Source of the DNA: Candidatus Jordarchaeia archaeon
Lineage (GTDB): Archaea; Asgardarchaeota; Jordiarchaeia; Jordiarchaeales; Jordiarchaeaceae
Length of the DNA: 35,482 bases
Assembly: GCA_029856435.1 (NCBI GenBank)
Contig: JAHQXB010000165.1
Span: 1 to 35,482 of the forward strand
Direction: 5' to 3'
Part shown: positions 4,935-25,788 of the stretch, in pieces
Numbering within the stretch: position 1 is the first letter of the stretch
Layout: every line of letters begins with the position of its first letter
Position numbers and translations under genes: made by a program
Notes under the pieces: model-generated
What the model was told of the DNA's origin: nothing
What the model saw: the letters and a program-made list of their open reading frames with translations, nothing else
Databases searched by the model: none

Positions 4935-5035
4935 GGGCACTTAGCTCAGTGGAAGATCCCGCCAAACAAGCGGTATCCAAGAGCGCCTGGTTCGCATCCA
5001 GGAGGCCGCGAGTTCAAATCTCGCAGTGTCCACCA
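4935..5035 (+). tRNA. tRNA-Ala(CGC) with one 26-nt intron at 22/23 (4956-4981)
   Basis: Acceptor GGGCACT/AGTGTCC with G3:U70 Ala determinant; anticodon arm CCTGG-TTCGCAT-CCAGG; T arm GCGAG-TTCAAAT-CTCGC; CCA encoded. Central helix TGGA/TCCA with AG|A bulges; removal gives a 75-nt cloverleaf. Confidence 0.92.
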
Positions 5036-5483
5036 CCTCTCTTCTAAATTAAACCTACATAAGCCCAGCATTCTACTTAGGCTAACATCTCTTCTGCATT
5101 TTACATAAATATATCCGCAATTTGAAAAGAATCTCAAGATAAATTAGTGAGCTGGCTTAAATTGCAAATCTTACAAAATATGACCCCAAACCTGCATAAG
5201 GGGAAGGCAGTATTCTTATCTTTATCTATTTGAAAATTCTGTATCGCGGCCTCTTTATTCATAAGGCTTTTTTAATGTTGATCTACAATTTTAGGATGAA
5301 TGATAATTGAGATTTTAGTCTCCAATCTCTCCTCCCTACTCGTTCATAGAGTGAAGAATAACAAAGAAACCTAGGATCCAAGTAACACATAAAATATTGA
5401 AATAATAACATCACAAAAACCACTATTTTTCTCTGATATTAAGCCTCTCTGTCCTATCACTAAGACAAGTGAACTAATATTAT

Positions 5484-5608
5484 TGGTGGACCCAGCGAGA
5501 TTTGAACTCGCGGCCTCCGCGATTTTGGGATAGCTTGCCTTCGCTCTCATACCCTTGTTAGTAGGGTATGGGTAACGCGGCGCTCATACCAGGCTGAGCT
5601 ATGGGCCC
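5484..5608 (-). tRNA. tRNA-Ala(GGC) with two introns: 33/34 (5540-5573, 34 nt) and 37/38 (5523-5535, 13 nt)
   Basis: Acceptor GGGCCCA/TGGGTCC with G3:U70; anticodon stem CCGCG/CGCGG; removing both introns gives loop TT-GGC-AT and a 78-nt tRNA with CCA. Confidence 0.85.
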
Positions 5609-5666
5609 ACCCTCTAATTTTTTAATTGGCGCTCCTATTTTCCGCTATTAGAAACACTTTTTATCT

Positions 5667-5852
5667 TTATTTTAGTCTATTTCCTCTGATTTTTTTGTTT
5701 TGCCAGCTGTATCTTCTAAATCTTTTGGATCTTCCATAGCCGCAAGCTGCACAGTATTTTTTTGTGGCATGGTATGAGTGTTTTCCACATCTTCGGCATC
5801 TTATATGCGTTTTTGTGTCCCTTTTGCCTTTGCTTGGTGTTCCTTTAGTCAT
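5667..5852 (-). CDS. rpl37e: 50S ribosomal protein L37e
   Basis: [11 protein letters not shown]...[14 protein letters not shown]...CAACGYG zinc ribbon; downstream of Sm as in many archaea. Confidence 0.97.
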
Positions 5853-5882
5853 TGCGATCCCTATTATAAGTTATTTTATGTT

Positions 5883-6128
5883 TTATTCTGTTTTTATTCC
5901 AGGACTAAGGAGGATTACGTTGTCTCCTCTCACTATTACGGTTCCTACCTTTTTATTGTTGTCTTTATCTATTACTTCTTCTGCTTCATCTAAAATGAGG
6001 TTCATGTGGAGGTCGAATCCTTTGAGTTTGCCTCTAAGTTCTCGTCCTCCTTTGAGTTTAACGAGTACTCTAGCTTCGAGTGATCTGTTAAGTAGGTCAA
6101 GAGGTTTTGTTATACTTGATTCGCTCAT
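5883..6128 (-). CDS. Sm-like archaeal protein (Lsm/SmAP)
   Basis: Sm1 GKLKGFDLHMNLIL and Sm2 VIVRGDNV motifs. Confidence 0.95.
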   Translation of the reverse strand: MSESSITKPLDLLNRSLEARVLVKLKGGRELRGKLKGFDLHMNLILDEAEEVIDKDNNKKVGTVIVRGDNVILLSPGIKTE

Positions 6129-6468
6129 TACGTTTTTCTCTCCTTTAAAAAATATGTTGTGTATTTTCTGTTGGAATTAGGTTAATATTTAAGTATATCG
6201 GATTACAATCGTCATATCCAAATATGTTTCAATCTTGTTATTCGGATATTATATTCTTTTTGAGTCCAATTTTATAAACACTTGGACTAATATAATACCC
6301 ATGATAATATGCTTTTTGGGGGGGTTAATATCATTTTCCGCAACTTTGAAATATTTAGAGCTTATTATTTTAAGTAAATCATAGTATTTTAGAGAATTTC
6401 ATGTGAAAATAGTAAGTTTGTAATAAGGAGGAGAAAAAGTTTTTAATGTATATGTTGAGGCGGTATTC

Positions 6469-6948
6469 TTGAAATTGAAGAATCGTCACTTCCTACGCGA
6501 TAAAGAAATTAAAAAATTGGAAAAGGAGCTAAGAGAGCGCTTAGGAGAGAACTTTTCCATTCCCGAAAAGGTAGAGTACGGAGTATTGAAAGACGATCTT
6601 CATTTATATCTTGTAGATGGGGCTCCCTTCCTTATTCGCATGGTAGACCTACTTTTTCCCACCCTTAAAGCCATAATGAACGGAGCTATAAAACTCCCAA
6701 AAGTCACTGTAGATATGGGCGCTGTTGGCTTCATCACCAAAGGAGCTGACATCATGGTTCCCGGAATCGTTAAGGTCGACGACAACATAAAGCAATTCTC
6801 TCTAGTCGTGGTCACAGATGAAAAATATGATAAACCCCTAGCCGTAGGACTAGCACTTATGGACGCACAAACCATAAAAAGTTCCAGCAAAGGACCCGCA
6901 ATAAAGAATTTGCACCATGTTGGAGACAACATTTGGAATTTTGAATAA
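6469..6948 (+). CDS. PUA-domain RNA-binding protein (Tma20/MCT-1-like)
   Basis: VTVDMGAVGFITKGADIMVPGI...GPAIKNLHHVGDNIW; TTG start. Confidence 0.85.
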   Translation: MKLKNRHFLRDKEIKKLEKELRERLGENFSIPEKVEYGVLKDDLHLYLVDGAPFLIRMVDLLFPTLKAIMNGAIKLPKVTVDMGAVGFITKGADIMVPGIVKVDDNIKQFSLVVVTDEKYDKPLAVGLALMDAQTIKSSSKGPAIKNLHHVGDNIWNFE

Positions 6949-6985
6949 AATTTAAAAATAGATTTGAAAAACATTCCATAAGAGT

Positions 6986-7131
6986 GCTCCGGTGGTGTAG
7001 TCCGGTCAAACAAACCAAATGGACTAAGCATAAGGGGCTCAAGAAAAATCTGCCCAATCGATCCTTTGACCCGGGTTCAAATAACTAAGCTAACCTTTAA
7101 ACTTAGTTTGAGCGTCCCGGCCGGAGCACCA
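6986..7131 (+). tRNA. tRNA-Glu(CUC) with three introns: 21/22 (7010-7027, 18 nt), 34/35 (7041-7057, 17 nt), 59/60 (7082-7114, 33 nt)
   Basis: Acceptor GCTCCGG/CCGGAGC-A-CCA. Central helices GGTC/GACT, GGGC/GCCC and TTCA/TGAG each have 3-nt bulges. The spliced product is 78 nt with loop CT-CTC-GA. Confidence 0.9.
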
Positions 7132-7397
7132 TCACCCCAAAATAACTAAACGAATCTTTTATGCTGATTCCCGCTTAGTTATCCTTCGATTTTTTAACAT
7201 TAAAAATTGACACATTGGACACAGGTGATGTAGATTAGTCCTATTCTATCCCTCATTTCAAGGCTCTAAATCAGAAAAGAAGCCCTATGAAAGCTTCCTT
7301 CGAAGGCGGAATCGAACGAATCTACACCGCGTTGGACACACATAGTAAAGATTATTAATGCTTTGAACTCTTTAGTAAAACATGGAGCCTTCGGTGA

Positions 7398-7552
7398 GCC
7401 TCGGTTCCTCTGAAATAGAGGCGAGATAGCTCAGTGGCAGAGCGGCAGCCTCGTACAATCACACATTCAAAGTGCGGTCTGAGTAAGCTGAAGGTCGCGA
7501 GTTCGATAGAGCTTGCAATTTTGCTGCTCCAAAAACCTCGCCCGGGGCTCCA
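7398..7552 (+). tRNA. tRNA-Thr(CGU) with three introns: 8/9 (7406-7427, 22 nt), 37/38 (7456-7485, 30 nt), 59/60 (7508-7535, 28 nt)
   Basis: Acceptor GCCTCGG/CCGGGGC, U73, CCA; anticodon CT-CGT-A|A. The 8/9 motif is a perfect hBHBh' (CTCG/CGAG, inner CCTCT/AGAGG). Spliced length 75 nt. Confidence 0.88.
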
Positions 7553-7585
7553 GTTTCCTTTTTACCAGCTTTTTGGGTGGTTCTT

Positions 7586-8572
7586 ATGACTGTTGAAGAT
7601 GTGGGTGAGCGTGGATTAATTGAATTATTTCACACCTTAATAGATAGCTTTCCGCATGCGGTTTTGCCTTATGGTGATGATGCTGTAGGGATTCCTTTCG
7701 GAAACGATGTTCTGATAGTTAATACAGATATGCTTGTGGGTAAAACAGATGTTCCTCCCGGTATGACATATTGGCAGGTGGGGCGAAAAGCAGTTGTTAT
7801 GAATGTGAGCGATGTTGTTGCTAAGGGCGCCAAACCAATGGGTGGCGTTTTCTCCCTTGGTTTTCCGAGGGGGACAACTCGGGATGAAGCAACGGATTTG
7901 GTTAAGGGATTGAATGCGGGTTGCAGGGAGTATGGATTTTATTACTTGGGGGGTGATACCAATGAGTGCTCCGACCTTGTGGTTTCTGGAGCCGTTTTTG
8001 GAATAGTTGGACGAAATAAAGTCGTTTCGCGGAGTGGAGCGCAACCCGGAGACGTAGTAGCTGTTACTGGACATTTCGGCTTAACCACTATGGGGTTCAA
8101 AATACTGTTCGAAAAATTGAGCGCTGATCCAAAGACTAAAGAGTTAGGTTTGCGCGCCATTTATGAACCCCATGCCCGTTTGAAGGAAGGGATAGTTCTA
8201 TCTGAGCGGGGCTTTGTGTCTTCCAGCATTGACAGTAGTGATGGTCTAGCTTGGTCGCTTTACGAGATTTCACAAATGAGTAGCGTAGGGTTTATTATTG
8301 ATTCAATACCTGTCCCCAAAGAGGTGCAAATGTTTGCAAATGAACACGGACTCAACTACTTTGATCTCGCACTATATGGTGGCGAAGAATTCGAACTCAT
8401 AGTCACAATTCCTTCCGTGAAATGGAATAAAGCCGTGGATGCAGTAAAGGTCGTTGGAGGCAATTTGTATCCCATAGGAATTGTAACTGAAGAAAAAAAT
8501 ATGGTACTACGTCTACCGAACCAAACTGAAAGGAGAATATATCCAAAGGGATTCGAACACTTTAAAAGATGA
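7586..8572 (+). CDS. thiL: Thiamine-monophosphate kinase
   Basis: VGERGLIE, GDDAV, MNVSDVVAKGAKP, GGDTNE, SIDSSDGL, GGEEFEL; ATG 7586 preferred, GTG 7577 possible. Confidence 0.93.
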   Translation: MTVEDVGERGLIELFHTLIDSFPHAVLPYGDDAVGIPFGNDVLIVNTDMLVGKTDVPPGMTYWQVGRKAVVMNVSDVVAKGAKPMGGVFSLGFPRGTTRDEATDLVKGLNAGCREYGFYYLGGDTNECSDLVVSGAVFGIVGRNKVVSRSGAQPGDVVAVTGHFGLTTMGFKILFEKLSADPKTKELGLRAIYEPHARLKEGIVLSERGFVSSSIDSSDGLAWSLYEISQMSSVGFIIDSIPVPKEVQMFANEHGLNYFDLALYGGEEFELIVTIPSVKWNKAVDAVKVVGGNLYPIGIVTEEKNMVLRLPNQTERRIYPKGFEHFKR

Positions 8573-8628
8573 CCACAAAAATTTTAAACAATAATATGAA
8601 AAATAAACCACATATATAAAAGTATAGG

Positions 8629-8747
8629 CGGGCACGAGGGGACTTGAACCCCTGATAAAACCGGCTATCCTCCAGGATTTTAGAGGGCATACGCCTAACT
8701 GTCGGCGCCCTTTCAGGTTTCTGAAATCCTGGCTAGGCGACGTGCCC
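8629..8747 (-). tRNA. tRNA-Arg(UCU) with three 14-nt introns: 20a/21 (8712-8725), 29/30 (8689-8702), 37/38 (8667-8680)
   Basis: Acceptor GGGCACG/CGTGCCC-G73; helices CAGG/CCTG, GCGC/GCGT, CCTC/GAGG; spliced anticodon stem CCGGC/GCCGG with loop CC-TCT-AA. Atypical C33 and 7-nt variable region; CCA not fully encoded. Confidence 0.78.
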
Positions 8748-8813
8748 AAATCTAATTTTTGATGGGTTTATGGGTATTTGGTTTATTAGGCTTACGGGGT
8801 TTAAAATATTTTT

Positions 8814-9476
8814 CTACTCCTCCTTTAGGGAGTATAAATATTTGTATTTTCTTGTTCTGACAATGTATCCCGCTAGGTCGAAGGCTTTTTTGGCTTTTTG
8901 TAGTATGACTGTGTCGCTAGTGGCCACCACTTGTCCCCTTTTTATGACTGCAATGTCTGCCTGTTTTGCTACTTGTGCGGTGCCTTTTATGCTGTGTTCT
9001 TCCATTTTTTTTCTCGTGAATGCTGCCAGTTCTCCGCTCCTGCTTACCGGGCTGTCGAAGAATACAAGTGTTTCTTTTGGGGGGTTTTGTTTGAGTGTTT
9101 GCATTATTAGGTTGATTGCTTGGTGTGTGTTCTTTGTTATTTTATGTTTGCCAAACACTCCTGCGATATCTCTCACAAATGAGTCGTCAGCGTCAATTAA
9201 GTTTTTTTCTTCTAGCATTGTTTCGAGGACTATGATTACATTGTATGCGTCTACGGTTAGTATTTTGTCTTTGAGGTCTTTGAAGTTTACGGTTTTCTCT
9301 TTTCTTTCTTCTACTTCTTTTTGGCTGTATACTGCTCTGTATAAAATGAAGCGTTCATCTTTTTTTAGTTTATAGTGATCCCCTACAAAGTTTAATGCTC
9401 GGTCTCTGTTATAATTTCTGTTTAGGAGGTATCGCATGTCTTCTGCTGCTTCTAGGACTTTATGGTCAATAAACAT
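8814..9476 (-). CDS. DUF434-type conserved archaeal protein (putative PIN/NYN-like fold)
   Basis: EAAEDMRYLLNRNY...ALNFVGDHYKL..ERFILYR, LTVDAYNVII, FFDSPVSRSGELA, VATSDTVIL; start moved to ATG 9476 (AGAGG upstream) to avoid overlap with alaS. Confidence 0.75.
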   Translation of the reverse strand: MFIDHKVLEAAEDMRYLLNRNYNRDRALNFVGDHYKLKKDERFILYRAVYSQKEVEERKEKTVNFKDLKDKILTVDAYNVIIVLETMLEEKNLIDADDSFVRDIAGVFGKHKITKNTHQAINLIMQTLKQNPPKETLVFFDSPVSRSGELAAFTRKKMEEHSIKGTAQVAKQADIAVIKRGQVVATSDTVILQKAKKAFDLAGYIVRTRKYKYLYSLKEE

Positions 9477-9645
9477 GATGGATCCTCTGCGATTTTTTGA
9501 CCGTTTATTGGAAAACGATTTTTGTTCACATATTTTTATTTTACTAGTGGTTCTAATTAATTGTGTGTTTTCATGCATAAAGTTTTTAGAATTACTCCGC
9601 AATGTTTTAGGTACATTACTGTTGTTCAAGGAAGGTTTGAGAATA

Positions 9646-12384
9646 ATGATTTCCAAAGAGGAGCTGAGGAAAAAGTTTGGTAGAGGAAGCTACGAAGTAG
9701 AATTGTTCAAAAGAGAAGGTTTTGAGAGAAGGCAGTGTAGATCCTGTAATGAATGGTATTGGACGACCAGCAACAATGAATTTTGCGGAGATACAAAGTG
9801 TGTTGGGGGATACAAGTTTATCGGACGTAGAATGGATGGAGGCTGGGATTTTCATGAGGCTGTTAAGAATTGGTGCGACTTCTTTGAGAAGCGTGGACAT
9901 ACGAGGATAAGTGAGTATCCCGTGGTTGCAAGGTGGAGAGATGATATTCCATTCACCATCGCTTCTATTACTGATTTTCAACCATACGTGGTTGAAGGTA
10001 TCGTTGAGCCTCCGGCGAATCCTCTAGTGGTTCCTCAGCCCTGTATAAGGTTCGGTGGCAAAGGATTCAATGATATTGATAACGTTGGGAAGACTGGTAG
10101 GCATCTAAGCCTATTTGTGATGGGCGGCCAGCACGCGTTCAATTATGATGATAAGGGTTACTGGATGGATCGTTGTATTGAACTCAATTTTGAGTTTCTC
10201 ACCAAATGCCTTAAACTGAATCGCGATGAGGTGAGTTATAAGGAGGATGTGTGGGCTGGAGGTGGTAATTTTGGCCCCTGCCTTGAGGCCTTTGGTAGAG
10301 GTTTGGAGATAGTTAATAACGTATTTATGCAATATGCGTTTACTTCAAATGGGACTTGCCGAGAATTGGACATCAAGGTAATCGACGTAGGCTGGGGGGT
10401 TGAGCGAATAGGTTGGTTTACTCAAGGTTCACCTACCATATATGAGGCGGCTTTCGGACCTGTGTTGGATTGGCTAAAGAAGAGTACAGGGGTGTCTGTA
10501 GACGAAGAACTCCTAGAGCGTTATACTGTTCTATCCGGTCTTCTTAACGTGGACGAAGTAGACAATATTGATAAGGCTAGGGGAGACGTAGCCGCAAAAC
10601 TAGGCATTGAAAAGGAAGATTTGCACAAATCTTTAGGTCCTCTGGAAGCATTATATGCTATTTCTGATCACACTCGAACACTTGTTTTTGCAATTGCAGA
10701 TGGGGGAATTCCCTCAAATATTGGAGGAGGCTACAACTTACGTATTATCCTCAGACGGGCTTTAAGCCTAAACGACCTATACAGCTTTGAACTGGACTTC
10801 TTAGAACTCTTCCATAAGCATATTGAATATTTGAAAAAAACTTATAGACGGGTGGAAGCAGCTTCAGATATTATTAATGACATCTTTAATATTGAACGTG
10901 AAAGATATTATCAAACACTGGAGAAGGGCAAAAAATATGTGGAGGGGCTTCTTAAAAGGCAAAAGAAACTGGATTTAGATACTTTAATCGAGCTTTACGA
11001 GTCGAAAGGAATCTCTCCTGAAATGGTGCAAGAAATCGCAGAAAATTTCGATATAAAACTGGAAATCCCGGGAAACTTCTATGTGCAATTAGGTAGCAAA
11101 AAGGAAAAAGTTACTCTTATTACCACCAAGGATACTCTAATGGATGCGTTTAAGGATTTGCCTCCAACTAGAACTCTTTACTATGAGCAGCCCTACCAGA
11201 TGAAGTTTGAAGCTAAAGTCTTGAAGGTTCTAGACTCTATTGTGGTATTAGACCAAACCCTATTCTACCCTACAGGTGGCGGAGCGGTTCACGATACAGG
11301 AAAATTAAACGGATATAGAGTTATTAATGTTGAAAAATTGGGTAACGTAGTAGTACACAGACTGGATAGACCAGCCGAGTTAAAACCATCGCAACGGGTT
11401 AATGGAGAAATAGATTGGAGTAGGAGAATAGCCCTTATGAGACACCATACTGCTACACATATAGTAAATGGTGCCGCTAAGAAGGTTCTTGGTCCACATA
11501 TTTGGCAAGCGGGAGCGGAAAAAACTCCCGAAGGAGCAAGATTAGACATTACCCACTATAAGGCACTAAACACAGAAGAGATTAGAAAAATAGAAAGAAT
11601 CGCAAATGAAGTAGTTATGGAATGTAGACCAGTTACAGCAAAATGGATGCGTAGAGACGAAGCAGAGAAAAAATACGGTTTTCAAATCTATCAGGGAGGG
11701 GTTGTGCCAGGAGGTATAATAAGAATTATCGATATAGAAAACTGGGACACTGAGGCATGTGGAGGTGTTCACCTTAAAAACACAGGGGAAATAGGTCTAA
11801 TTAAGATAAAAGGGGCAGAAAGAATACAGGATGGCGTAGTCAGGATAGAGTTTATTGCAGGTACGCCGGCAATTGATTACTCCCAAGAAACGGATAGCCT
11901 TTTGGAAAAAACAGCAAGCATATTTCGCGTCCCCAAGACTCAATTGCCAAAAGCTGCAGAAAGATTTTTTGAAGAATGGAAACAAAGAGGCAAGGAAATC
12001 GAAAGGCTGCACAGTGAGATAGCAGAAATCGAAGCCACGGAAATTATGAACAAAATGAAGAAATTTGAAGAATACGAATTCATTATAGAAAAAACAAAGT
12101 TAGGCATAGATGAAGCAATAAAGGTCGCAAGTAAAATAACTGAAGAGAAGCCAAACTCTGTGGTGGTACTGGCAAAATCAGATGACAAAGTCGACGTCGT
12201 AGGTATGATAGGAAAATCTGTTAATCTCGACATCAGCGAAATCATTAAAGAAGCTTCAAAAGTTGTGGGAGGAAGCGGAGGTGGGAAAGGTAGACTAGCT
12301 AGGGGAGGCGGACCAAAAACTGAGAAAGTTCAAGAAATGCTAAGCAAGATAGAGAGCCTAATAAAGCAAAATAAAAGGTGGTAA
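9646..12384 (+). CDS. alaS: Alanyl-tRNA synthetase (archaeal type)
   Basis: VVARWRDDIPFTIASITDFQP, DVGWGVERIGW, editing HTATHIVNG and EACGGVH, C-terminal GGGGKG; start trimmed to ATG 9646. Confidence 0.96.
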   Translation: MISKEELRKKFGRGSYEVELFKREGFERRQCRSCNEWYWTTSNNEFCGDTKCVGGYKFIGRRMDGGWDFHEAVKNWCDFFEKRGHTRISEYPVVARWRDDIPFTIASITDFQPYVVEGIVEPPANPLVVPQPCIRFGGKGFNDIDNVGKTGRHLSLFVMGGQHAFNYDDKGYWMDRCIELNFEFLTKCLKLNRDEVSYKEDVWAGGGNFGPCLEAFGRGLEIVNNVFMQYAFTSNGTCRELDIKVIDVGWGVERIGWFTQGSPTIYEAAFGPVLDWLKKSTGVSVDEELLERYTVLSGLLNVDEVDNIDKARGDVAAKLGIEKEDLHKSLGPLEALYAISDHTRTLVFAIADGGIPSNIGGGYNLRIILRRALSLNDLYSFELDFLELFHKHIEYLKKTYRRVEAASDIINDIFNIERERYYQTLEKGKKYVEGLLKRQKKLDLDTLIELYESKGISPEMVQEIAENFDIKLEIPGNFYVQLGSKKEKVTLITTKDTLMDAFKDLPPTRTLYYEQPYQMKFEAKVLKVLDSIVVLDQTLFYPTGGGAVHDTGKLNGYRVINVEKLGNVVVHRLDRPAELKPSQRVNGEIDWSRRIALMRHHTATHIVNGAAKKVLGPHIWQAGAEKTPEGARLDITHYKALNTEEIRKIERIANEVVMECRPVTAKWMRRDEAEKKYGFQIYQGGVVPGGIIRIIDIENWDTEACGGVHLKNTGEIGLIKIKGAERIQDGVVRIEFIAGTPAIDYSQETDSLLEKTASIFRVPKTQLPKAAERFFEEWKQRGKEIERLHSEIAEIEATEIMNKMKKFEEYEFIIEKTKLGIDEAIKVASKITEEKPNSVVVLAKSDDKVDVVGMIGKSVNLDISEIIKEASKVVGGSGGGKGRLARGGGPKTEKVQEMLSKIESLIKQNKRW

Positions 12385-12489
12385 GGCTACCTTACCCAAC
12401 ATCTACGCTTATCTACTTTATTTAGAAGTGGTTAGGGAAACACTGGACAACATGATTGTCTAGTCATATTTTCCAATTTTCATTTTCCT

Positions 12490-12807
12490 CTAACCGAAGA
12501 GCGCTCCGAGACCCGTTACCTCTTCCTCTTCTTCTTTCTTCTTCTCTTCTTTCTTCTTCTCTTCTTTGGCTGGTTTTGCTTCTTTGGTTTCTGGTGTTGT
12601 GGGTACTGCTACTGCTGTTATGGGAGCTGCAGTCTTAATTGCTTCTTCAATGTCCACTTCCTCAAGAGCGGCGACTATAGACTTGACCCTAGCCATATCA
12701 ACTTTTACCTCTGCTGCTTCAAGAATCTTAGCAATGCTTTCCTCAGTTATTTTTTTCCCTGCCTTATGGAGAAGCATCGAAGCATATACGTATTCCATTA
12801 TTTTCAC
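12490..12807 (-). CDS. rpl12: Ribosomal stalk protein P1/L12p
   Basis: [11 protein letters not shown], acidic hinge, terminal GLGALFG. Confidence 0.96.
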
Positions 12808-12967
12808 CTCATATGTTTATCATAATTTTGGATTGATTTTATAAAAGCTGTTAAATATCACTCTTTATGGCAATACTTCTTATTAACCTAAAGGACGCGA
12901 ACTCACCCTTTTCCTTTTGTTTCATGTTTCTGACGCCTTTTAAGATCTTCCTAAAATTTTTGTTTTT

Positions 12968-16037: not shown

Positions 16038-16044
16038 TTTCCCC

Positions 16045-16457: not shown

Positions 16458-17522
16458 TTAGGCTTCGGTGTCTTTGATTAGCTTCTCAACGTAGGGTAGT
16501 GATACAGCGCTGATAATTATTGTCACACGTAGAGTATCTTTTAGGTTTGGATTTATGTTAGCACCCCAAATCACTTCTGAGTTAGGGTTTACTTTTTCTG
16601 ATACCTTTCTTACTATTAATTCTGCTTCTCTGATTGTTAGATTTTGATCGCCAGTTATGTTTATTAATGCTGCTCTGGCATCTTTGGCATCAACATCTAG
16701 TAGAGGGTTTCCTAAAGCCTTTTCAACTGCTTGGCAGGCTCTATCTCCACCACTTGACTCTCCAACCCCAATAAATGCAACTCCACTATTTTTGACTACT
16801 GTTCTTATATCTGCGAGGTCGACATTTACGAGACCCGGTTTTATGATTAGTTCAGATATTGAATTCACTCCCTTTATTAGAACTTCATCTGCGAGACTAA
16901 ATGCTTCTGTAAGGGAAATTTTGTCCGCTATCCCCAATAGTTTTTCGTTGGGTATAACGACTATCGTGTCTGAAGCTCGGTGCAGTTTTTTAAGTCCCTC
17001 CACTGCACTTTGCCAGCGCTTTTTGCCCTCTATTAGGAAGGGAAGGAAGCATATTGAGATAGTGAGTGCACTCGATTTTCGGGCGACTTCAGCGATTATG
17101 GGCGCTGCTCCGGTTCCGGTTCCCCCTCCTAACCCACATGTGACAAAAACCACTTCTGCCGAAACAGCCTTCTTTATATCCTCCAAGCTTTCTTGGGCCG
17201 CCGCCATACCTATTTCCGGATTATTACCTGCTCCCAATCCTCCAGTTAGTTTTTTACCTATTAACAACTTGTAATCCGCGTTTGTATAAAGTAAATCTTG
17301 CGCATCGGTATTTACCGCAATAGTTTCAATGCCTTCAACTTTACACTTAGTCAGCCTAGTGACTGCATTATTACCCGCCCCTCCCACGCCAAAAACTTGA
17401 ACCTTTGCTTTAGCTTTGTTAAGTATAGCGGAAAGTTGCTGGTCAACAGTCTTAGAATTAAATAATTCTTTATAGCATGATCCGTCAGTATTTGCCTCAG
17501 AAACCGAGTTCATATCACTCAC
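16458..17522 (-). CDS. ftsZ: Cell division protein FtsZ
   Basis: GVGGAGNN, NTDAQDL, GLGAGNNP, GGGTGTG signature, PFLIEG, T7 loop NVDLAD. Confidence 0.95.
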   Translation of the reverse strand: MSDMNSVSEANTDGSCYKELFNSKTVDQQLSAILNKAKAKVQVFGVGGAGNNAVTRLTKCKVEGIETIAVNTDAQDLLYTNADYKLLIGKKLTGGLGAGNNPEIGMAAAQESLEDIKKAVSAEVVFVTCGLGGGTGTGAAPIIAEVARKSSALTISICFLPFLIEGKKRWQSAVEGLKKLHRASDTIVVIPNEKLLGIADKISLTEAFSLADEVLIKGVNSISELIIKPGLVNVDLADIRTVVKNSGVAFIGVGESSGGDRACQAVEKALGNPLLDVDAKDARAALINITGDQNLTIREAELIVRKVSEKVNPNSEVIWGANINPNLKDTLRVTIIISAVSLPYVEKLIKDTEA

Positions 17523-17645: not shown

Positions 17646-18482
17646 TTGATACTCATTGTTAGTTCTGTCAAAGATGTAGCGGGGATGAATATTTCTGAGA
17701 GACTGAGGGAGAGATTCGATTTTGTTGAAGTTGAAGCGGAGAATGGCGAACATAGAAGGTGGATAGGAAAAACCAGCAGGGCAAAAGTGGTTTTAGTGCA
17801 ACGTTGGGAGGAAATCCTATACTGCGAAAATTTAGAAAAAATTTATACCCCCGAACTCATAATTTTTGCAAGCAGACATACTAGTGTCACCGGAGAACCA
17901 ACATTAACTGTGCATGTCTCAGGTAACTTTGGCGAAGCTGAATATGGGGGATCGCCTAGAACATTATCGGTAGCCCCTCCTCTTCGTCTGAAATCTGCTC
18001 TTTTAAAACTCTATGAAATGAAAAGTGACTTGGGATTAGATTTTGAGGTTTCCCAAGAACAGACGCACCATGGCCCCACGGTTTTATGTCCCTCATTTTT
18101 TATCGAAATAGGGAGTTCTGAAAAACAGTGGAGAAATGAGATTGCGGGGGCGGTCGTAGCTGAAACAATAATTAGTGTTCTTCAAAGTCCGGATAGAGAT
18201 TGGAGTATAGCGGCGGGTTTTGGTGGCGGACACTACGCCCCAAAATTCTCTCAAATTAATCTCAATACTGAATTTGCCGTGGGCCACATAGCCTCAAAGT
18301 ATTATACCCATCTTCTCGATGAATATATGCTAAAACAGATAGTTGATAGAACTGTTGGGGAATTGAAATTTTTCATTATAGACTGGAAAGGCGTGAAATC
18401 AGAGGAAAGAACAAAAATAATTGAATTCGCAGAAAATAACAAAATAGAAGTCTTAAAAACAAAAGACATACCCACTATTTAG
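17646..18482 (+). CDS. dtdA: D-aminoacyl-tRNA deacylase (archaeal DTD2/GEK1 type)
   Basis: IFASRHTS..GEPTLTVHVSGN, QTHHGPT, FFIEIGSSE..W, GFGGGHYAPKF; TTG start. Confidence 0.92.
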   Translation: MILIVSSVKDVAGMNISERLRERFDFVEVEAENGEHRRWIGKTSRAKVVLVQRWEEILYCENLEKIYTPELIIFASRHTSVTGEPTLTVHVSGNFGEAEYGGSPRTLSVAPPLRLKSALLKLYEMKSDLGLDFEVSQEQTHHGPTVLCPSFFIEIGSSEKQWRNEIAGAVVAETIISVLQSPDRDWSIAAGFGGGHYAPKFSQINLNTEFAVGHIASKYYTHLLDEYMLKQIVDRTVGELKFFIIDWKGVKSEERTKIIEFAENNKIEVLKTKDIPTI

Positions 18483-18529
18483 AATGACTATTTTTGGAAG
18501 TTAAAAAATTTCTTTAACTGTGGGCTATG

Positions 18530-19408
18530 TTACCCTGCAAGTGTTAATAGTACTATCCCCAATGTTGCTAGTATTGCTCCCACAGCTATTCGCAGCGTAA
18601 TTTTTTCCCTGATGATGTAAAATGAGAACACTGTTGAGAACAGTGGAGTAACTGAAGAAATGGCTGTAGAACGTGTGGCTCCTATAAGCGAGATTCCCGC
18701 TAAAAAGGCTATTCCCCCTATTCCAATGGCTATTACTCCTGCCAATCCCAGAATCAGCCATTCTCTGAGGCTTGTTTTAGCAAGTATTTTTCCTCTCCCT
18801 GAAAAAAGAATCACTACTGCTAAAATACCTACAAGTAGAGGCAATCTGATGGCATTAGCTAAATAGTAATTAATACCCTCTAATGCTAAATCTAACAAAA
18901 TGATTCCTATCGACCAAGTTATCGCCGTTATTATCGCTAGTATAACCCCTTTTTTATCGTTTTTTGTGTTTGTGGAGTTTTGGGAATTGTTTTTGCTAAG
19001 AAGCCAAATTGCAACGACAACAATTACGACACCCATAATTGTTAATAGTTGTGGAGTTTCTTCCAAAAAAATGATGGAGAAAACTGCGGTAAAGAGTGGA
19101 TATGTGCTCGTGATAGGAACTGCGCGGCCCACCCCAATATATTTCAGAGATAGAAAATATACTCCGTCTCCGATTCCCAGACCCGTGAAGGTTCCTAAAA
19201 CTAAATAAATCAAACTCCCATAAGGAAGGTACGAGATCTTCCAGAATTCACCTATAAGCAGTACTAATACAAAAACAAATATCGCTGCTGGAATTGTTCT
19301 TATAAAATTAGCTAAAATTGCATCTACCTTCTCGAGGGATTTTTTATAAAGTATCGCTGAAATGGCCCAGCACAGCGCCGCCGACAATGATGCTATTTCA
19401 CCAATCAA
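18530..19408 (-). CDS. EamA/DMT-family transporter
   Basis: About 10 hydrophobic segments in two repeats; SLKYIGVGRAVPITSTYPLF. Confidence 0.88.
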   Translation of the reverse strand: MIGEIASLSAALCWAISAILYKKSLEKVDAILANFIRTIPAAIFVFVLVLLIGEFWKISYLPYGSLIYLVLGTFTGLGIGDGVYFLSLKYIGVGRAVPITSTYPLFTAVFSIIFLEETPQLLTIMGVVIVVVAIWLLSKNNSQNSTNTKNDKKGVILAIITAITWSIGIILLDLALEGINYYLANAIRLPLLVGILAVVILFSGRGKILAKTSLREWLILGLAGVIAIGIGGIAFLAGISLIGATRSTAISSVTPLFSTVFSFYIIREKITLRIAVGAILATLGIVLLTLAG

Positions 19409-19537
19409 GCAACACCACAGACCTTTACGGGCTTTCCTAAGTTTGGTTTATATCTTTCAGTGAGTGCCGCTTTTAAAGAATGTGTAACTTGAAATATTAA
19501 TTCATTTTGCTCCCGCTTGTTCTGTTATTCCTTATTT

Positions 19538-20449
19538 TTAAAACAGCTGAATGAAAATAGCTTTTTGTGCGTGTAGTCTGTTTTCAGCTTGGTCCCAAAC
19601 AACCGATTGTTTTCCTTCCAAGACCTCTTCTGTTATTTCTTGTCCCCTGTGTGCTGGCAGGCAGTGCATAACAATAGCGTCGGGTGAAGCGTTTTCTAGT
19701 AGTTTGGTGTTAACCTGAAAATCTGGAATGAACGTTTTCAATCTTTCTTCTCTTTCTTTTTCGTTGCCCATACTTACGAATACATCTGTGTAAACTATGT
19801 CTGCGTCCTTTACGGCCACTTGGGGCGAGTTAGTTATTTCAACTTGGGACCCAGATTTTTTGGCGTTACTTTTAGCCTTTTCAACAATCTCTTTTTTTGG
19901 CTCGTATCTTTTAGGCGATCCAACGCAAATATTTAAACCAATTTTTGTGCAGCCGATCAATAGGGAGTTGCAAACATTGTTTCCATCGCCTATATAGGCT
20001 AATTTCAATCCTTCCAATTTTCTCTTCTTTTCCTTAATGGTAAGAATATCCGCTAGTATTTGGCAAGGATGGTAAAGATTGCTTAGCGCGTTTATTACCG
20101 GTACTCCTGAATACTTTGCGAGTTCTACCAAATCGTTATGTTCGTAGACTCTTGCAACAATACCATCCACATATCTTCCTAAAACTCTAGCTGTATCTCT
20201 AACAGGTTCGCCCCTACTGAGTTGCAGTTCGTCTCCCCTCAGAAAAATGAAGTTCCCCCCAAGCTGGTTCACCGCCACCTCAAACGAAACACGTGTTCTA
20301 GTTGAAGGCTTTTCAAATATTGCAGCAATGTTTTTTCCTCTGAGAACTTGAGACTTCACCTTTCCCGACTTCACCTTTTCTGCAGTAGCTATAAGTTTAT
20401 GTATCTCGTCGGAAGAAAAGTCATCTAAAGTGAGAAAATGTCTAACCAA
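19538..20449 (-). CDS. argF: Ornithine carbamoyltransferase
   Basis: FEKPSTRTR, NALSNLYHPCQ, YTDVFVSMG, MHCLPAHRG, WDQAENRLH. Confidence 0.95.
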   Translation of the reverse strand: MVRHFLTLDDFSSDEIHKLIATAEKVKSGKVKSQVLRGKNIAAIFEKPSTRTRVSFEVAVNQLGGNFIFLRGDELQLSRGEPVRDTARVLGRYVDGIVARVYEHNDLVELAKYSGVPVINALSNLYHPCQILADILTIKEKKRKLEGLKLAYIGDGNNVCNSLLIGCTKIGLNICVGSPKRYEPKKEIVEKAKSNAKKSGSQVEITNSPQVAVKDADIVYTDVFVSMGNEKEREERLKTFIPDFQVNTKLLENASPDAIVMHCLPAHRGQEITEEVLEGKQSVVWDQAENRLHAQKAIFIQLF

Positions 20450-20463
20450 AGAATTTCCTCCTC

Positions 20464-21378
20464 CTAATTCCCTAGAATTTTATCTGTAAACCACTCTGGG
20501 TTAAATGGTTCCAAATCCTTATAATCTTGACCTACTCCCACAAAGATAATGGGTTTTTTAGTAGCATAAACAATTGAAAGGGCAACCCCCCCTTTTGTAT
20601 CTGCATCAACTTTGGCAAGTATAGACGCGTCAATTTGTATAGCTTCATTAAACTTCTCCGCTTGTTCAACTGCATCGTTTCCTGTTAAAGCGTCACCGAC
20701 AAATATTTTTAGATCTGGATTAATTACGCGAACGATCTTCTTCATCTCGTCTAAGAGGTTTACGTTGGTTTGTATTCTGCCAGCGGTGTCTATTAAAACA
20801 ACATTTATGCCTCTCGCCTCAGCGTGTTTAACAGCATCAAATGCTACTGCTGTGGCGTCTGAATGATACCTATGTTTTATCACTCTAACACCTAGATTTT
20901 TTGCGTGTTTCTCTATTTGTTCAATACTACCTGCTCTATAAGTATCTGAAGCAGCTAAAACACAACTGAACCCTTTTTTCTGAAAAGCGTAAGCCAGTTT
21001 AGCTAAAGTTGTGGTCTTTCCTGTACCGTTTATTCCCACAAAAATTATTATAAGTGGCTTTTTTTCTAATTTCTTCTCCTTTGCCATACTGAAAATATCA
21101 ATATCATGTCCTCCGCTGAGAACCTTATAGATTGCCTTTCTTAAAGCATCATTTACCTTCTCGTAGGGGTTCTCGAATCTGCCGACCCTCTCTCCCATTA
21201 ACTCCTTTTTTATGTCGTTTGCGATTAATTCTGCCACCTTTACCGATACATCGTTCTGTATAAGTGTCAGCTGTAAGTCCCATAAAACTTCGTCTAAGCT
21301 TTTCTCGCTTAACTCCTTTGTACTCAGTTTTTCAACTACTTTACCCAAACTAGTCTTTAATTTTTCGAACACTAACAA
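20464..21378 (-). CDS. ftsY: Signal recognition particle receptor FtsY/SR-alpha
   Basis: GINGTGKTTT, DTYRAG, DTAGR, AKVDADTKGG, GVGQDYKDL. Confidence 0.96.
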   Translation of the reverse strand: MLVFEKLKTSLGKVVEKLSTKELSEKSLDEVLWDLQLTLIQNDVSVKVAELIANDIKKELMGERVGRFENPYEKVNDALRKAIYKVLSGGHDIDIFSMAKEKKLEKKPLIIIFVGINGTGKTTTLAKLAYAFQKKGFSCVLAASDTYRAGSIEQIEKHAKNLGVRVIKHRYHSDATAVAFDAVKHAEARGINVVLIDTAGRIQTNVNLLDEMKKIVRVINPDLKIFVGDALTGNDAVEQAEKFNEAIQIDASILAKVDADTKGGVALSIVYATKKPIIFVGVGQDYKDLEPFNPEWFTDKILGN

Positions 21379-21447
21379 TCCACCATAGATGCATAATTAG
21401 TGAAATTTCTAAAAATTAGTTTAAAAGTATTTTTAAAATAAAAATAT

Positions 21448-21870
21448 TCAGCCTCTAATTTTAGCAACGAGAGTCTGCGCTTTTCTGTTTAACTCATTAA
21501 TTTTGTTCGCTATCTCCTGCAATTGTTGTCCTGTAGCTTGCAGCGCGTTTTGAAGAGCCATAGATCTCTGATCTAGGCTGAGCTGCGCTCCCGTGATATC
21601 CTTATCCACAGCCACCTCTGCACCGATGGTTGTTATCACTTTTTTAATATCAATTATCTTCGCCCTTACATAGACACCCGATCCTAAAGGCATAAGAACC
21701 TCGTTATCCTCAGTAACGTTTTTGAGTTCGTCTAGGGACTCTGCAGTTAAAGCTATTTCTTGCAACGAAGCATTTATTAAATCTATTCTCCTTTGCAAAA
21801 TACGTGCCTGCTGCTCATAGGCATTCAATTCTGCAATAATTCTTTCCAAATTACGTTCATCTTCTGACAT
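21448..21870 (-). CDS. pfdA: Prefoldin alpha subunit
   Basis: Coiled coils flanking EVLMPLGSGVYVRAK...IGAEVAVDK; conserved cluster position. Confidence 0.92.
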   Translation of the reverse strand: MSEDERNLERIIAELNAYEQQARILQRRIDLINASLQEIALTAESLDELKNVTEDNEVLMPLGSGVYVRAKIIDIKKVITTIGAEVAVDKDITGAQLSLDQRSMALQNALQATGQQLQEIANKINELNRKAQTLVAKIRG

Positions 21871-21874
21871 ATCT

Positions 21875-22132
21875 TCACGTCTCCAAGTTTGAAAAGTATC
21901 TTATAGTTGGGTCGCTGGCTTTGTTTGGGCTTATAACTGTTATTTCATCAAATTTAATGTGGTGCCTCTTTACTTTGTGGTTACTCCCGATTGTCGAGTA
22001 TATAATCTCTTTTGCCTCTTCCTCGTCTAATGCTCTGATTTCTCTAACAAATTTAAATTCCTCATTTTTACCCTTAAATCTTCCTTTTACTCTGAATACC
22101 TTCACGCTCACAGAATCTTTAGACATATTCAT
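21875..22132 (-). CDS. rpl18a: 50S ribosomal protein L18a/LX (eL20)
   Basis: VKVFRVKG...FVREIRAL...IYSTIGSNHKVKRHHIKFDEI. Confidence 0.92.
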   Translation of the reverse strand: MNMSKDSVSVKVFRVKGRFKGKNEEFKFVREIRALDEEEAKEIIYSTIGSNHKVKRHHIKFDEITVISPNKASDPTIRYFSNLET

Positions 22133-22142
22133 CTCTCCAACT

Positions 22143-22811
22143 CTATTCAAGATTTAGGGTCTGCCCTATCTGAAACATTTCAGGACCCGTGGTTTCTTTA
22201 CCCACTATAGCTCCCTTCGTGTTGGCTACTAGACCAACTTTTATATATGGGTTACCACAGTTAACTGTCCCTATACCCACAGGAGTTTTGAATTTATCGC
22301 TTAGCCATTCTAAATTTTTATCATCCGTTAAAGGATGCGCCAAAACTCCACTATTAGTTGCAACTGCTATGGAACCAACTAGGGGCGAGCCAGCTATACT
22401 TCCACGGTAAACATCAACTTCCAAGTTTTTCTTTATAATCTTTATGGCTTCATCACTAAACCCGGGATGAACTAAGGCGGCGTTATCATTAACAAGAACA
22501 GTGTTACCCAAGGCATTTATCTTACCAGGAACCCTATCTATGTTAATATCCAATTGACGCCTAATAATTTCAATCTCCTCATCAGTTGTAAACTCTGGAA
22601 CTATCAAACCCTTAGAATTTCCCGCAGCTAAAACCCCAATAATAAAGCTCTCACCTATACTCGCCTCCACAACCTCCACATCTAGAGTTCGCTCAATAAG
22701 ACTCTTGTTGGTCATCCTCCTAACTTTGGGTAAAATAACATAGCTTTCAGTGGCTAATATAAAAACGCCTATGTTAGAATCACCGAAAAAGCTACTCCTT
22801 ACGATAACCAA
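22143..22811 (-). CDS. eif6: Translation initiation factor 6 (aIF6)
   Basis: FGDSNIGVF, GNTVLVNDNAALVHP, GSIAVATNSGVLAHP, GTVNCG; TTG start 22811 chosen. Confidence 0.93.
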   Translation of the reverse strand: MVIVRSSFFGDSNIGVFILATESYVILPKVRRMTNKSLIERTLDVEVVEASIGESFIIGVLAAGNSKGLIVPEFTTDEEIEIIRRQLDINIDRVPGKINALGNTVLVNDNAALVHPGFSDEAIKIIKKNLEVDVYRGSIAGSPLVGSIAVATNSGVLAHPLTDDKNLEWLSDKFKTPVGIGTVNCGNPYIKVGLVANTKGAIVGKETTGPEMFQIGQTLNLE

Positions 22812-22827
22812 ATAGGGTCTACCCCAT

Positions 22828-23124
22828 TCATTCCTCAGCAGCAAGAGATACTTCAACAATCCCCTCCGAATCCTTAGAAGCCTTAACTCTAATCTTACGC
22901 GGAGGTTTTTCAATACCCCTCTCCCATATCTTTTCATTCACCTCTGGAAGAATAACAACATTATCTGACTTAAGATGCCTCATAATAAACCTTCTCAAAA
23001 TTCTTACCGCTTTAGTAGCCCTGCGATTGGGGGGAACATATCTAGCAGTTTTAAGCGGAACAGTATAAATGCGTTCCTCAACAATTTTTTTCTCCATACC
23101 CGGAGGCGCTTCTTCTTCAGACAT
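22828..23124 (-). CDS. rpl31e: 50S ribosomal protein L31e
   Basis: ERIYTVPL...RATKAVR...VNEKIWERGIEKPPRKIRV; GAGGTGA RBS before ATG 23124. Confidence 0.95.
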   Translation of the reverse strand: MSEEEAPPGMEKKIVEERIYTVPLKTARYVPPNRRATKAVRILRRFIMRHLKSDNVVILPEVNEKIWERGIEKPPRKIRVKASKDSEGIVEVSLAAEE

Positions 23125-23129
23125 ACCAT

Positions 23130-23285
23130 TCACCTCTGAAGGCGACTAGACCGCCAATGCCTACGCTTCGGATGGGTTCTCACCCTTCCCCTAGTCTTAA
23201 CAATAATCCAAGCAGGAACCGCAACATTTTGTTTGCCCGCCTTCCCCAACCTCAGCTTTTTTGGTAAGGGTTTATTTCTAGCCAT
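23130..23285 (-). CDS. rpl39e: 50S ribosomal protein L39e (below the ORF-track length cutoff)
   Basis: Manual translation: [51 protein letters not shown] (51 aa). Confidence 0.95.
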
Positions 23286-23304
23286 TCAGAGTTCTCTCCC
23301 TTGT

Positions 23305-23643
23305 CTATCTGTACTTTACTTTAATGTCCCTTCTTCTCTCCTGCAACTGCCTAAGAATATTTTTCAACTGCTCGTCAGTTAGCGGTGCAGTAATTCTACC
23401 TGCCTGTGCCAACTGAATGAGCTGAATCTCTATTTGATCAGCAAAATCTGGCTTCACAATCTTAAGATTAGTAAGTCTGCTCCTAGCTTCAGGTGTCAAT
23501 ATCTGCCTCAAAACTGCCTGCTTCTGCGTTTCATATTCCCTTTGAGCTCTCTCCTGCCTTTGTGCTTCAGCTATCTGCTGCTGAAGCTGTAACATCCTAC
23601 GCCTTCTGATTTCCTCTATTTCTTCGTCTGACAAAGATGACAC
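23305..23643 (-). CDS. PDCD5-like DNA-binding protein
   Basis: EIEEIRRRRMLQLQ...LRQILTPEARSRL..LKIVKP..ADQIEIQLIQLAQAG. Confidence 0.92.
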   Translation of the reverse strand: MSSLSDEEIEEIRRRRMLQLQQQIAEAQRQERAQREYETQKQAVLRQILTPEARSRLTNLKIVKPDFADQIEIQLIQLAQAGRITAPLTDEQLKNILRQLQERRRDIKVKYR

Positions 23644-23647
23644 ACCC

Positions 23648-24097
23648 TCAAATGAATAAAGTTGCTGCCTTCTCTAATTTAACATATACTTTATGAGCCG
23701 CCCTATCCAAGAGTGATCTTCCTTCGCTACTGATCCTCCTACCTTTTCTCTCCACCCTTTCTATCAAGCCCGCCTTTTCAAGTTGTTGGAACGCCTTCCT
23801 TATAATTGAACCACTACCCTTCACAGAGCGAGCTAACGCCACCTTCCTCCTCTTCCTTCCACCATACACCGTTCTCAGCCTTGAAACCCCTACGGGGCCA
23901 GTTAGATACACTTTCCTAAGAATCGAAGCACACCGAATATACCACCAGTCCGGCCTCTCCGGCGCTTTTTCCTTATGCACCCCAGTCTTCCAGAATTGGG
24001 AACCCGGTGGAGGTGACACCTCTGGATGATCACTTTTGAGAATTTCCGCCACCTCTTGAATGAGTTCCCATGCAGGTACATCATAGACTGTTGACAT
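23648..24097 (-). CDS. rps19e: 30S ribosomal protein S19e
   Basis: WKTGVHKE..P..PDWWYIRCASILRKVY..GPVGVSRLRTVYGG. Confidence 0.97.
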   Translation of the reverse strand: MSTVYDVPAWELIQEVAEILKSDHPEVSPPPGSQFWKTGVHKEKAPERPDWWYIRCASILRKVYLTGPVGVSRLRTVYGGRKRRKVALARSVKGSGSIIRKAFQQLEKAGLIERVERKGRRISSEGRSLLDRAAHKVYVKLEKAATLFI

Positions 24098-24192
24098 TCA
24101 AAACTCACCATTTTCTAGCTTGAGAACGGTAAAATATAACATCATCAGGTTATAAACATTTTTTCCAAAGATTATATAAATATGACGTATTA

Positions 24193-24456
24193 TTAAACAT
24201 ATTTGGCAAGCAACAAGGTATACCCCCTAGTTTCCAAAAGCTGAGACTTAGTCCTCTCCAAAATTTCCGAAGCAATCTCATCCATGCTCTTCGTACCAAG
24301 TACACTCTTCAAAACCCTAACCTTAACTATCTTTTCTCTACCTAACAGCCTCTCAAGCTCCAAAACAAACTCCTCTGTCACACCCTTCTTACCCAAATGA
24401 ATCATCGCCGCCCCACTTCTCACCTTCTTAATCTTTTCACTCCTCATCCTCTTCAT
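24193..24456 (-). CDS. YhbY/CRM-domain RNA-binding protein
   Basis: IHLGKKGVTEEFV..L..EKIVKVRVL...TRGYTLLL; usual position between rnp4 and rps19e. Confidence 0.85.
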   Translation of the reverse strand: MKRMRSEKIKKVRSGAAMIHLGKKGVTEEFVLELERLLGREKIVKVRVLKSVLGTKSMDEIASEILERTKSQLLETRGYTLLLAKYV

Positions 24457-24468
24457 AATCCATAACTC

Positions 24469-24786
24469 CTAAATGTTATAACGCATATGATGCCCACAAT
24501 TAAAACAGGTTACTACAATGTGAGACTGGCGCCTCACTCTCAACCTAACCCTACAGTTAACACCCGGCCAAAGAAAAGCCTTACAACCACGACAGATACG
24601 CCACCGCCAAGCCCTAGGAATCCTCACCCTACTCCTCATACCTAACCTCCTACATATCTCCACATAACGCTGCGCCCTCTCCCGGTCCCGCAAAAAAACA
24701 TCATCAGCCAAACGCATCAAATACTCCATCCTCTCCCTAGCAATCTTCTCAATCTCTCTCCTTTCCCTTTTCCTCGTCACCGACAT
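24469..24786 (-). CDS. rnp4: RNase P protein component 4 (Rpp21)
   Basis: IARERMEYL...RAQRYV, zinc ribbon CRGC...VVTCFNCG. Confidence 0.93.
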   Translation of the reverse strand: MSVTRKRERREIEKIARERMEYLMRLADDVFLRDRERAQRYVEICRRLGMRSRVRIPRAWRWRICRGCKAFLWPGVNCRVRLRVRRQSHIVVTCFNCGHHMRYNI

Positions 24787-24943
24787 CTAAAAAATCTCCA
24801 GCAACCACATTCCTAAAAAACATAAACCAATCAACAACAACCAATTTAAGCTCAAAATAATCAGTAACTAACAAGTCTTAACAAGAAAAAGGTCATAAAA
24901 ATAAGTTTTAAACATTACGCTCCAAAAACAAAAGGAGAGAAAA

Positions 24944-25618
24944 ATGTTAACACTAATCCTAGCAGAATCCTCACTAGAAACAATCCCCCCAAAAACCAAT
25001 AAAAATGACACCACCAAAACCCCAAATAAAAAAGGTAAAAAAACACAGCAAATACTAGACATCTCCCTACACAGCCAAATAATAAAGAAACTACCGAACC
25101 GAGAAAAAAGAGGACGCCCAGATATCATACACTTCTCACTACTCGCAGCACTAGGAACCCCCCTAAACAAACAAGGACATCTCCAAACATTCGTCCACAC
25201 CATCCAAGACAAAGTAATAACAATAAACCCCCAAACCAGACTACCCAAAAACTACAACCGCTTCATAGGACTAATGCAACAACTCTACAAACTCGGAAAA
25301 GTACCCCCAAAAGGAACACCACTACTAACCATAGAAAAAATGAACCTAGAAACCCTAATCAAAAAAATAAAACCAACCCAAACCATAATCTTCACCGAAA
25401 AAGGAACCCCCACAAAACCAAAAACAATTATGAACGAATGCGCACAACAAGAAAACCCAACAATAATAATAGGGGGCTTCCCACATGGAGAATTCTCCAC
25501 AAACACCCTAAAACTAGCTGACAAAAAAATCTCAATCTACCCCGAACCCCTAGACGCATGGATAGTAATCTCAAGAGCCCTATACTGCTACGAAGAAATA
25601 ATCCTAAACAAAAAATAA
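24944..25618 (+). CDS. nep1: 16S rRNA pseudouridine N1-methyltransferase Nep1/Emg1
   Basis: LILAESSLE, RGRPDIIHFSLL, RLPKNYNRFIGLMQQL, IGGFPHGEF. Confidence 0.93.
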   Translation: MLTLILAESSLETIPPKTNKNDTTKTPNKKGKKTQQILDISLHSQIIKKLPNREKRGRPDIIHFSLLAALGTPLNKQGHLQTFVHTIQDKVITINPQTRLPKNYNRFIGLMQQLYKLGKVPPKGTPLLTIEKMNLETLIKKIKPTQTIIFTEKGTPTKPKTIMNECAQQENPTIIIGGFPHGEFSTNTLKLADKKISIYPEPLDAWIVISRALYCYEEIILNKK

Positions 25619-25657
25619 ACACAAACAAAAAGTTATATACAAAGAAAAATATTTGAG

Positions 25658-25788
25658 TGCGGCCTCCGGGAAATTCGTGAAGGAACTAGGGGTTCCAAGT
25701 TTATTTCGAACCCGGGCCACCAGCTTCGCCCTTCTACCTAGGGATAAAGAGTGGCAGGCTGGAATCCTAGCCACTAGACTAAGGCCGC
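25658..25788 (-). tRNA. tRNA-Gly(GCC) with two introns: 38/39 (25725-25750, 26 nt) and 59/60 (25672-25704, 33 nt)
   Basis: Acceptor GCGGCCT/AGGCCGC-A73; helices TGCC/GGCG and TTCG/CGAA; spliced loop CT-GCC-AC; 72 nt without CCA. Confidence 0.9.

Follow-up and report, generated by a model that had tools for sequence, protein, structure and literature searches.

Six transfer RNA (tRNA) genes lie in the stretch of DNA considered here, a window of 35,482 nt from Candidatus Jordarchaeia archaeon (assembly GCA_029856435.1, contig JAHQXB010000165.1), and all six are interrupted. Between them they contain 14 introns of 13–34 nt, or 2.33 introns per gene, located in Sprinzl numbering at 8/9, 20a/21, 21/22, 22/23, 29/30, 33/34, 34/35, 37/38, 38/39 and 59/60. 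The sequences make it very probable that these are functional genes of a member of the Freyarchaeia/Jordarchaeia, with between one and three protein-spliced introns of the bulge-helix-bulge (BHB) type in every transcript. An earlier note on this DNA had proposed six tRNA genes with 14 introns at ten positions, and BHB scoring combined with ARAGORN reproduced these figures exactly; an anchor scan of the window for T-arms and acceptor stems gave no tRNA gene beyond these six. Removal of the introns restores cloverleaves, as had been claimed, with products of 72–77 nt, all six of which ARAGORN calls with the predicted anticodons. The identity elements are in place (G3:U70 in both Ala-CGC and Ala-GGC, U73 in Thr, G73 in Arg), and CCA is encoded by four of the six genes.

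The six genes and their introns

Introns were sought as a 4-bp helix flanked by two 3-nt bulges, with cleavage 3′ of the second bulge base; candidates were excised recursively and the products given to ARAGORN. The automated search solved Ala-CGC with one intron, Glu-CUC and Thr-CGU with three each, and Gly-GCC with two. Ala-GGC and Arg-UCU were solved manually from the sequence and then scored with the same code as the other genes. A strict excision rule missed Ala-CGC, Ala-GGC and Arg-UCU, which needed relaxation or manual work.

The gene for tRNA-Ala(CGC) occupies 4935–5032 on the plus strand, with an encoded CCA extending to 5035. Its single intron, 26 nt at 4956–4981, interrupts the D-stem at 22/23; the site is of the HBh′ type, with 4/4 pairs in the central helix and no exon outer helix. 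The spliced product of 72 nt is read as Ala(cgc) by ARAGORN, and the unspliced gene matches the Rfam tRNA model at 60.2 bits with a 28-nt insert. Also on the plus strand, and recovered automatically, are tRNA-Glu(CUC) at 6986–7128 (CCA to 7131) and tRNA-Thr(CGU) at 7398–7549 (CCA to 7552). The three Glu introns, of 18 nt at 21/22 (7010–7027), 17 nt at 34/35, within the anticodon (7041–7057), and 33 nt at 59/60 (7082–7114), all have a 4/4 central helix. Those of Thr are of 22 nt at 8/9 (7406–7427), 30 nt at 37/38 (7456–7485) and 28 nt at 59/60 (7508–7535), the last with 3/4 central pairs. The gene for tRNA-Gly(GCC), at 25658–25788 on the minus strand, was likewise recovered automatically; its introns of 26 nt at 38/39 (25725–25750) and 33 nt at 59/60 (25672–25704) both have 4/4 central helices.

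The tRNA-Ala(GGC) gene lies on the minus strand at 5487–5608, with its encoded CCA from 5484. An intron of 34 nt at 33/34 (5540–5573), with 3/4 central pairs, and one of 13 nt at 37/38 (5523–5535) leave between them a micro-exon of only 4 nt (5536–5539), which bears the anticodon. In the precursor, the 37/38 motif has 2/4 central pairs; once the 33/34 intron is removed it has 4/4 and a 5-bp outer helix, so that splicing would be ordered, 33/34 before 37/38. ARAGORN reads this gene as Phe-AAA with a single 47-nt intron. That reading was rejected; G3:U70 is present, and in the sister family the anticodon exon is joined to the 3′ half.

The gene for tRNA-Arg(UCU), at 8629–8747 on the minus strand, does not encode CCA. 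It has three mini-introns of 14 nt each, at 20a/21 (8712–8725), 29/30 (8689–8702) and 37/38 (8667–8680), each with a 4/4 central helix, and ARAGORN gives Arg(tct) after their excision. At the 37/38 site the anticodon stem supplies the outer helix, which is complete only when the 29/30 intron is gone. Alternative readings that would restore U33, with anticodon CUA or AAA, were rejected; they have no matching 3′ stem strand, and the orthologues favor UCU.

Quality of the splice sites

A full 4/4 central helix is present at 12 of the 14 sites, compared with 1.2% of 252 control placements in which the boundaries were shifted by 4–12 nt. When an outer helix of at least 2 bp is also required, ten of the 14 sites remain, against 0.4% of the same controls. 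Applied to 24 shuffled genes and to 40 random genomic 140-mers, the excise-and-scan procedure did not yield a single tRNA.

Several points weigh against the reading of these loci as six spliced tRNA genes. Four sites are relaxed, in agreement with the earlier remark that several lack the outer helix or have a mismatch: two fall short of a 2-bp outer helix (Ala-CGC 22/23 possesses only h′, which contains one mismatch; Arg 20a/21 has 1 + 1 bp), and the other two, Ala-GGC 33/34 and Thr 59/60, form 3/4 pairs in the central helix. Cleavage at such sites would depend on an enzyme range that has been measured only in Aeropyrum. The automated search gave false solutions at two loci, taking Arg as Phe-GAA and a Glu orthologue in a related genome (G005) as Trp. 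Finally, the mature Arg-UCU would have two unusual features, C33 and a 7-nt variable loop (8648–8654).

It could be argued that some of the inserts at the four relaxed sites are not spliced at the predicted nucleotides, being cleaved one or two bases off, excised along a different route or, where they lie in the D-arm, retained as expansions. All four fail a strict rule demanding both a 4/4 helix and an outer helix, and among D-arm or annotator-missed inserts only 33–35% were found at canonical motifs (Goswami et al., 2026, bioRxiv 10.64898/2026.10.13.758758). On the other hand, the standard D-stem and the Ala anticodon arise only from the predicted cuts, and there is no other xGC triplet in the loop region of Ala-GGC. 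Sister-family orthologues also possess the Ala-GGC 33/34 intron, there with all central pairs formed (4/4), and HBh′ and hBH substrates are cut by APE-type EndA with a loop lysine. We consider displaced or absent splicing at any of these four sites improbable.

Orthologues in related genomes

The alanyl-tRNA synthetase (AlaRS) encoded in the window is 94–95% identical to that of metagenome-assembled genomes (MAGs) named Candidatus Jordarchaeia QZM_A3 and Candidatus Freyarchaeota SQRJ_82. Five of the six tRNA genes are present in two of these relatives with the same inserts, and about nine-tenths of the differences fall within the predicted introns. Exons account for four differences, which affect positions 26 and 44 and a variable loop. 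The same contrast, of conserved exons and drifting introns, extends across at least six assemblies, one of them a closed genome. Misassembly or faulty binning could in principle create such inserts, and nothing beyond the draft state of the genome speaks for it; the same genes, with the same inserts, occur in independent assemblies, including one closed with long reads, which reduces the probability of an artefact to almost nothing.

Four predicted junctions are matched exactly by natural intron-less alleles. The Thr 37/38 intron is absent from a genome of the same genus (G002) and the Thr 8/9 intron from a member of the sister family (G009); the 37/38 introns of Arg and Ala-GGC are absent from sister-family orthologues. 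In each case the sequence is that of the predicted junction. The three intron positions of Glu-CUC are the same in G002 and G005, and the T-arm introns of Glu and Arg are at different positions in the two families. In G005 there are extra variable-loop introns in Arg and Gly, the one in Gly being its third, and their removal yields the sequence of the window. The earlier note had suggested an independent burst of intron gain in this lineage. The presence or absence of single introns among relatives fits lineage-specific gain, and the pattern looks more like repeated gain and loss than one burst, as also reported in a 2026 preprint considered below.

The C33 of Arg-UCU, in an anticodon loop drawn from 8667–8690, stands where U33 is nearly universal. 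It is shared by the window and genomes G003, G004 and G005, and it pairs with a G in the 37/38 central helix. In G002 the base is U33, paired with an intron A, a compensatory double change that keeps the central helix. This co-variation suggests that a splice motif can shape the mature tRNA. The 7-nt variable loop of Arg-UCU in the window corresponds to one of 5 nt in G002 and, in G005, to 5 nt with an additional 24-nt intron; the longer loop could be the scar of an imprecise intron loss, or a short insertion. In Thr-CGU, the tertiary pair 26/44 (7443, 7492) is G26/A44 here and A26/C44 and A26/A44 in two relatives, and the 27:43 pair is a G-A mismatch.

tRNA genes in the rest of the genome

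A MAG of 3.54 Mb in 181 contigs, the assembly is 97.8% complete, with an estimated contamination of 5.7%. Genome-wide, the Rfam tRNA model gave seven matches at E ≤ 0.001, and ARAGORN called two tRNAs, of 95–96 nt. An anchor scan that required an intact T-loop start, a T-stem and a 7-bp acceptor stem produced 43 candidates, among them all six genes of the window; about 35 are tRNA-like, with lengths of 92–205 nt. Because the automated search can yield wrong solutions, counts of introns and anticodons for the whole genome are rough. Approximately two-thirds of these roughly 35 loci have a T-loop insert of 26–39 nt, apparently at 59/60, which would make this by far the commonest intron position in the genome.

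No compact tRNA gene was found in the assembly by ARAGORN, Rfam or the anchor scan, and it appears that none of the tRNA genes of this genome is intact. Contiguous copies of the six mature sequences are also lacking from the 97.8%-complete assembly, and the genes in the window are thus taken to be the working copies. The earlier note had named intron-less copies of these isoacceptors elsewhere, with these loci silent, as one finding that would tell against it; the assembly has no such copies. The loci might still be thought of as decaying pseudogenes or relics of mobile-element insertion, with the working tRNAs encoded elsewhere, possibly in the unassembled 2%, and the draft condition and estimated contamination of this MAG and the odd features of Arg-UCU could be cited for such a view. 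The missing intron-less and compact copies, the conservation of exons as introns drift, and the retention of splice geometry at all 14 sites oppose it, and we regard it as very unlikely.

Processing enzymes and the predicted pathway

As the earlier note had stated, no endA gene is present in the window; the genome carries two paralogues elsewhere. An open reading frame (ORF) on contig C104 encodes EndA α of 192 amino acids, with the Tyr/His/Lys triad preserved. It is nearest the catalytic α subunit of Aeropyrum pernix EndA (3P1Z chain B, E = 3e-45), and in the phmmer alignment to 3P1Z_B a loop Lys falls at the position of K44 in the Crenarchaea-specific loop. The second ORF, on contig C64, encodes EndA β of 197 amino acids, which has Thr where M. 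jannaschii has the catalytic His; with this His lost, it would be the structural β subunit, as expected. According to Kaneta et al. (2018), this lysine allows relaxed motifs to be cleaved, and Asgard archaea have an (αβ)2 EndA with such a loop. The prediction that this lineage would need an endonuclease accepting relaxed motifs is supported by the genes found. The likeness to the (αβ)2 EndA of A. pernix (PDB 3P1Z/3AJV) comprises the triad, the K44-aligned Lys and a second paralogue without the His.

A gene for RtcB is also present in the genome. From the motifs, the restored cloverleaves, the enzymes present and the intron-less alleles, we infer a pathway in which the precursor would fold locally to form a 4-bp helix between two 3-nt bulges, a heterotetrameric (αβ)2 EndA would cut each strand after the second bulge nucleotide, and RtcB would ligate the exons. 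Some sites would form only when a neighboring intron has been removed, namely the 37/38 site of Ala-GGC and the anticodon-stem helix of the Arg-UCU 37/38 site.

The sole RtcB gene, which lies outside the window, is itself interrupted by a 30-nt insert with an in-frame TGA (contig C93, 1547–1576, minus strand), which separates the conserved residues LPD from HQGYG. Its geometry is that of a BHB, with a 4/4 central helix, an h of 2 bp and an h′ of 4 bp, and its excision restores the motif.

Detection and the published record

The earlier note had expected standard annotation to miss or mis-assign these genes, and it does. On the uncut window ARAGORN found none of the six, and with introns allowed it gave the Phe-AAA miscall of unspliced Ala-GGC. 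The Rfam tRNA model was above threshold for two of the six, at 4935–5032 (plus strand) and 5487–5608 (minus strand), each with a large insert, with a weak match at 7420–7526. With standard tools detecting none of the genes or one in three, the decoding capacity and completeness of such genomes cannot be estimated reliably unless curation takes introns into account.

The phenomenon itself is already known. Introns of tRNA genes in the same genus were tabulated in 2024, and the clade was analyzed in 2026. In the closed genomes of Freyarchaeia and Atabeyarchaeia, 92–95% of tRNA genes are interrupted by introns; over half carry several, and many introns are non-canonical (Valentin-Alvarado et al., 2024, Nat Commun, PMC11291895). 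A census of 90 Asgard genomes gave 2.2–2.4 inserts per tRNA gene for the Freyrarchaeaceae and Jordiarchaeaceae (Goswami, Ghosh and Sinha, 2026, bioRxiv 10.64898/2026.10.13.758758), a value that the 2.33 of the window fits. The same preprint reported that D-arm inserts are missed by tRNAscan-SE, that introns are enriched at BHB boundaries, that gains were repeated and often terminal, and that most genomes have two EndA paralogues. Its census starts from genes detected by tRNAscan-SE; judging from this design, it would pass over any gene that the program fails to see at all, for example Ala-GGC and its micro-exon.

The earlier note described the Thermoproteales as the main known source of dense multi-intron tRNAs, a view now outdated because this genus was described in 2024. 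The features shared with that order, in the accounts of Sugahara et al. (2008) and Marck and Grosjean (2003), are up to three BHB introns per gene, non-canonical positions, and an (αβ)2 EndA with the Crenarchaea-specific loop. The differences are that another phylum is involved and that Pyrobaculum calidifontis has only 1.54 introns per gene, every one found by tRNAscan-SE, whereas here no gene appears intact.

The organism of the window is, on sequence grounds, a Freyarchaeia/Jordarchaeia Asgard archaeon of the same genus as the closed SRVP Freyarchaeia genome. The coordinates of Arg-TCT, Thr-CGT, Gly-GCC and Ala-CGC in G005 agree within a few bases with those listed for SRVP_Freyarchaeota_curated_circular (Supplementary Data 4), and from this match we infer that G005 is the published genome. 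The window and G005 belong to different species, with 84–89% identity at these loci. The published orthologues of Arg-UCU, Thr-CGU and Gly-GCC are tabulated with four, three and three introns (Valentin-Alvarado et al., 2024, PMC11291895); in the window, both Arg and Gly lack an intron in the variable loop.

Genes for Glu, Phe, His and Cys tRNAs are absent from the published table, as is Ala-GGC. Its "Met CAT" gene, at 1545739–1545581 in G005, is the orthologue of Glu-CUC of the window. At that locus the CUC reading has a 4/4 central helix compared with 1/4 for CAT, the window gene cannot yield CAT, and the entry appears to be mistyped. An Ala-GGC orthologue is located in G005 at about 1547141–1547300, with the same two introns and the micro-exon; the "Ala TGC" of that genome was considered as the orthologue and proved to be a separate Ala-UGC gene. 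Several tRNA genes of the published closed Freyarchaeia genome therefore appear to be still undetected. We think it reasonably probable that these points hold jointly, that is, that the catalogues for the genus are wrong (Glu-CUC as Met-CAT, Ala-GGC absent, fixed splice order) and that base 33 of Arg changed from U to C together with its intron partner.

Although little is added in principle to what was published in 2024 and 2026, the window provides a clean and checkable example of extreme tRNA-gene fragmentation in the Freyarchaeia/Jordarchaeia. Its practical value lies in exact BHB boundaries backed by the intron-less alleles of relatives, in the likely corrections to the published table (Glu-CUC as Met-CAT and the missing Ala-GGC), and in two test cases, the 4-nt micro-exon for ordered splicing and C33 for the co-evolution of intron and exon.

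Other features of the window

The Asgard origin that the earlier note had thought probable agrees with the AlaRS identities given above and with the eukaryote-like genes of the window, which encode a Ras-family small GTPase (1700–2233), Vps4 with an MIT domain (28491–29657) and an ESCRT-II subunit (29672–30406). A gene for FtsZ is found in the same window at 16458–17522. Weak snoRNA-like Rfam matches in the window were all far under threshold. No introns were seen in protein genes; when the two strands of the window were searched for BHB inserts that would fuse ORFs on removal, the only matches lay at boundaries between neighboring genes. The ends of the contig (34640–35482 and 35–415) are rich in G+C, 0.57–0.69 compared with 0.40 for the window, and the 3′ end contains part of a DDE transposase (PF01609, E = 5e-10). 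These G+C-rich ends probably represent an insertion sequence that interrupted the assembly.

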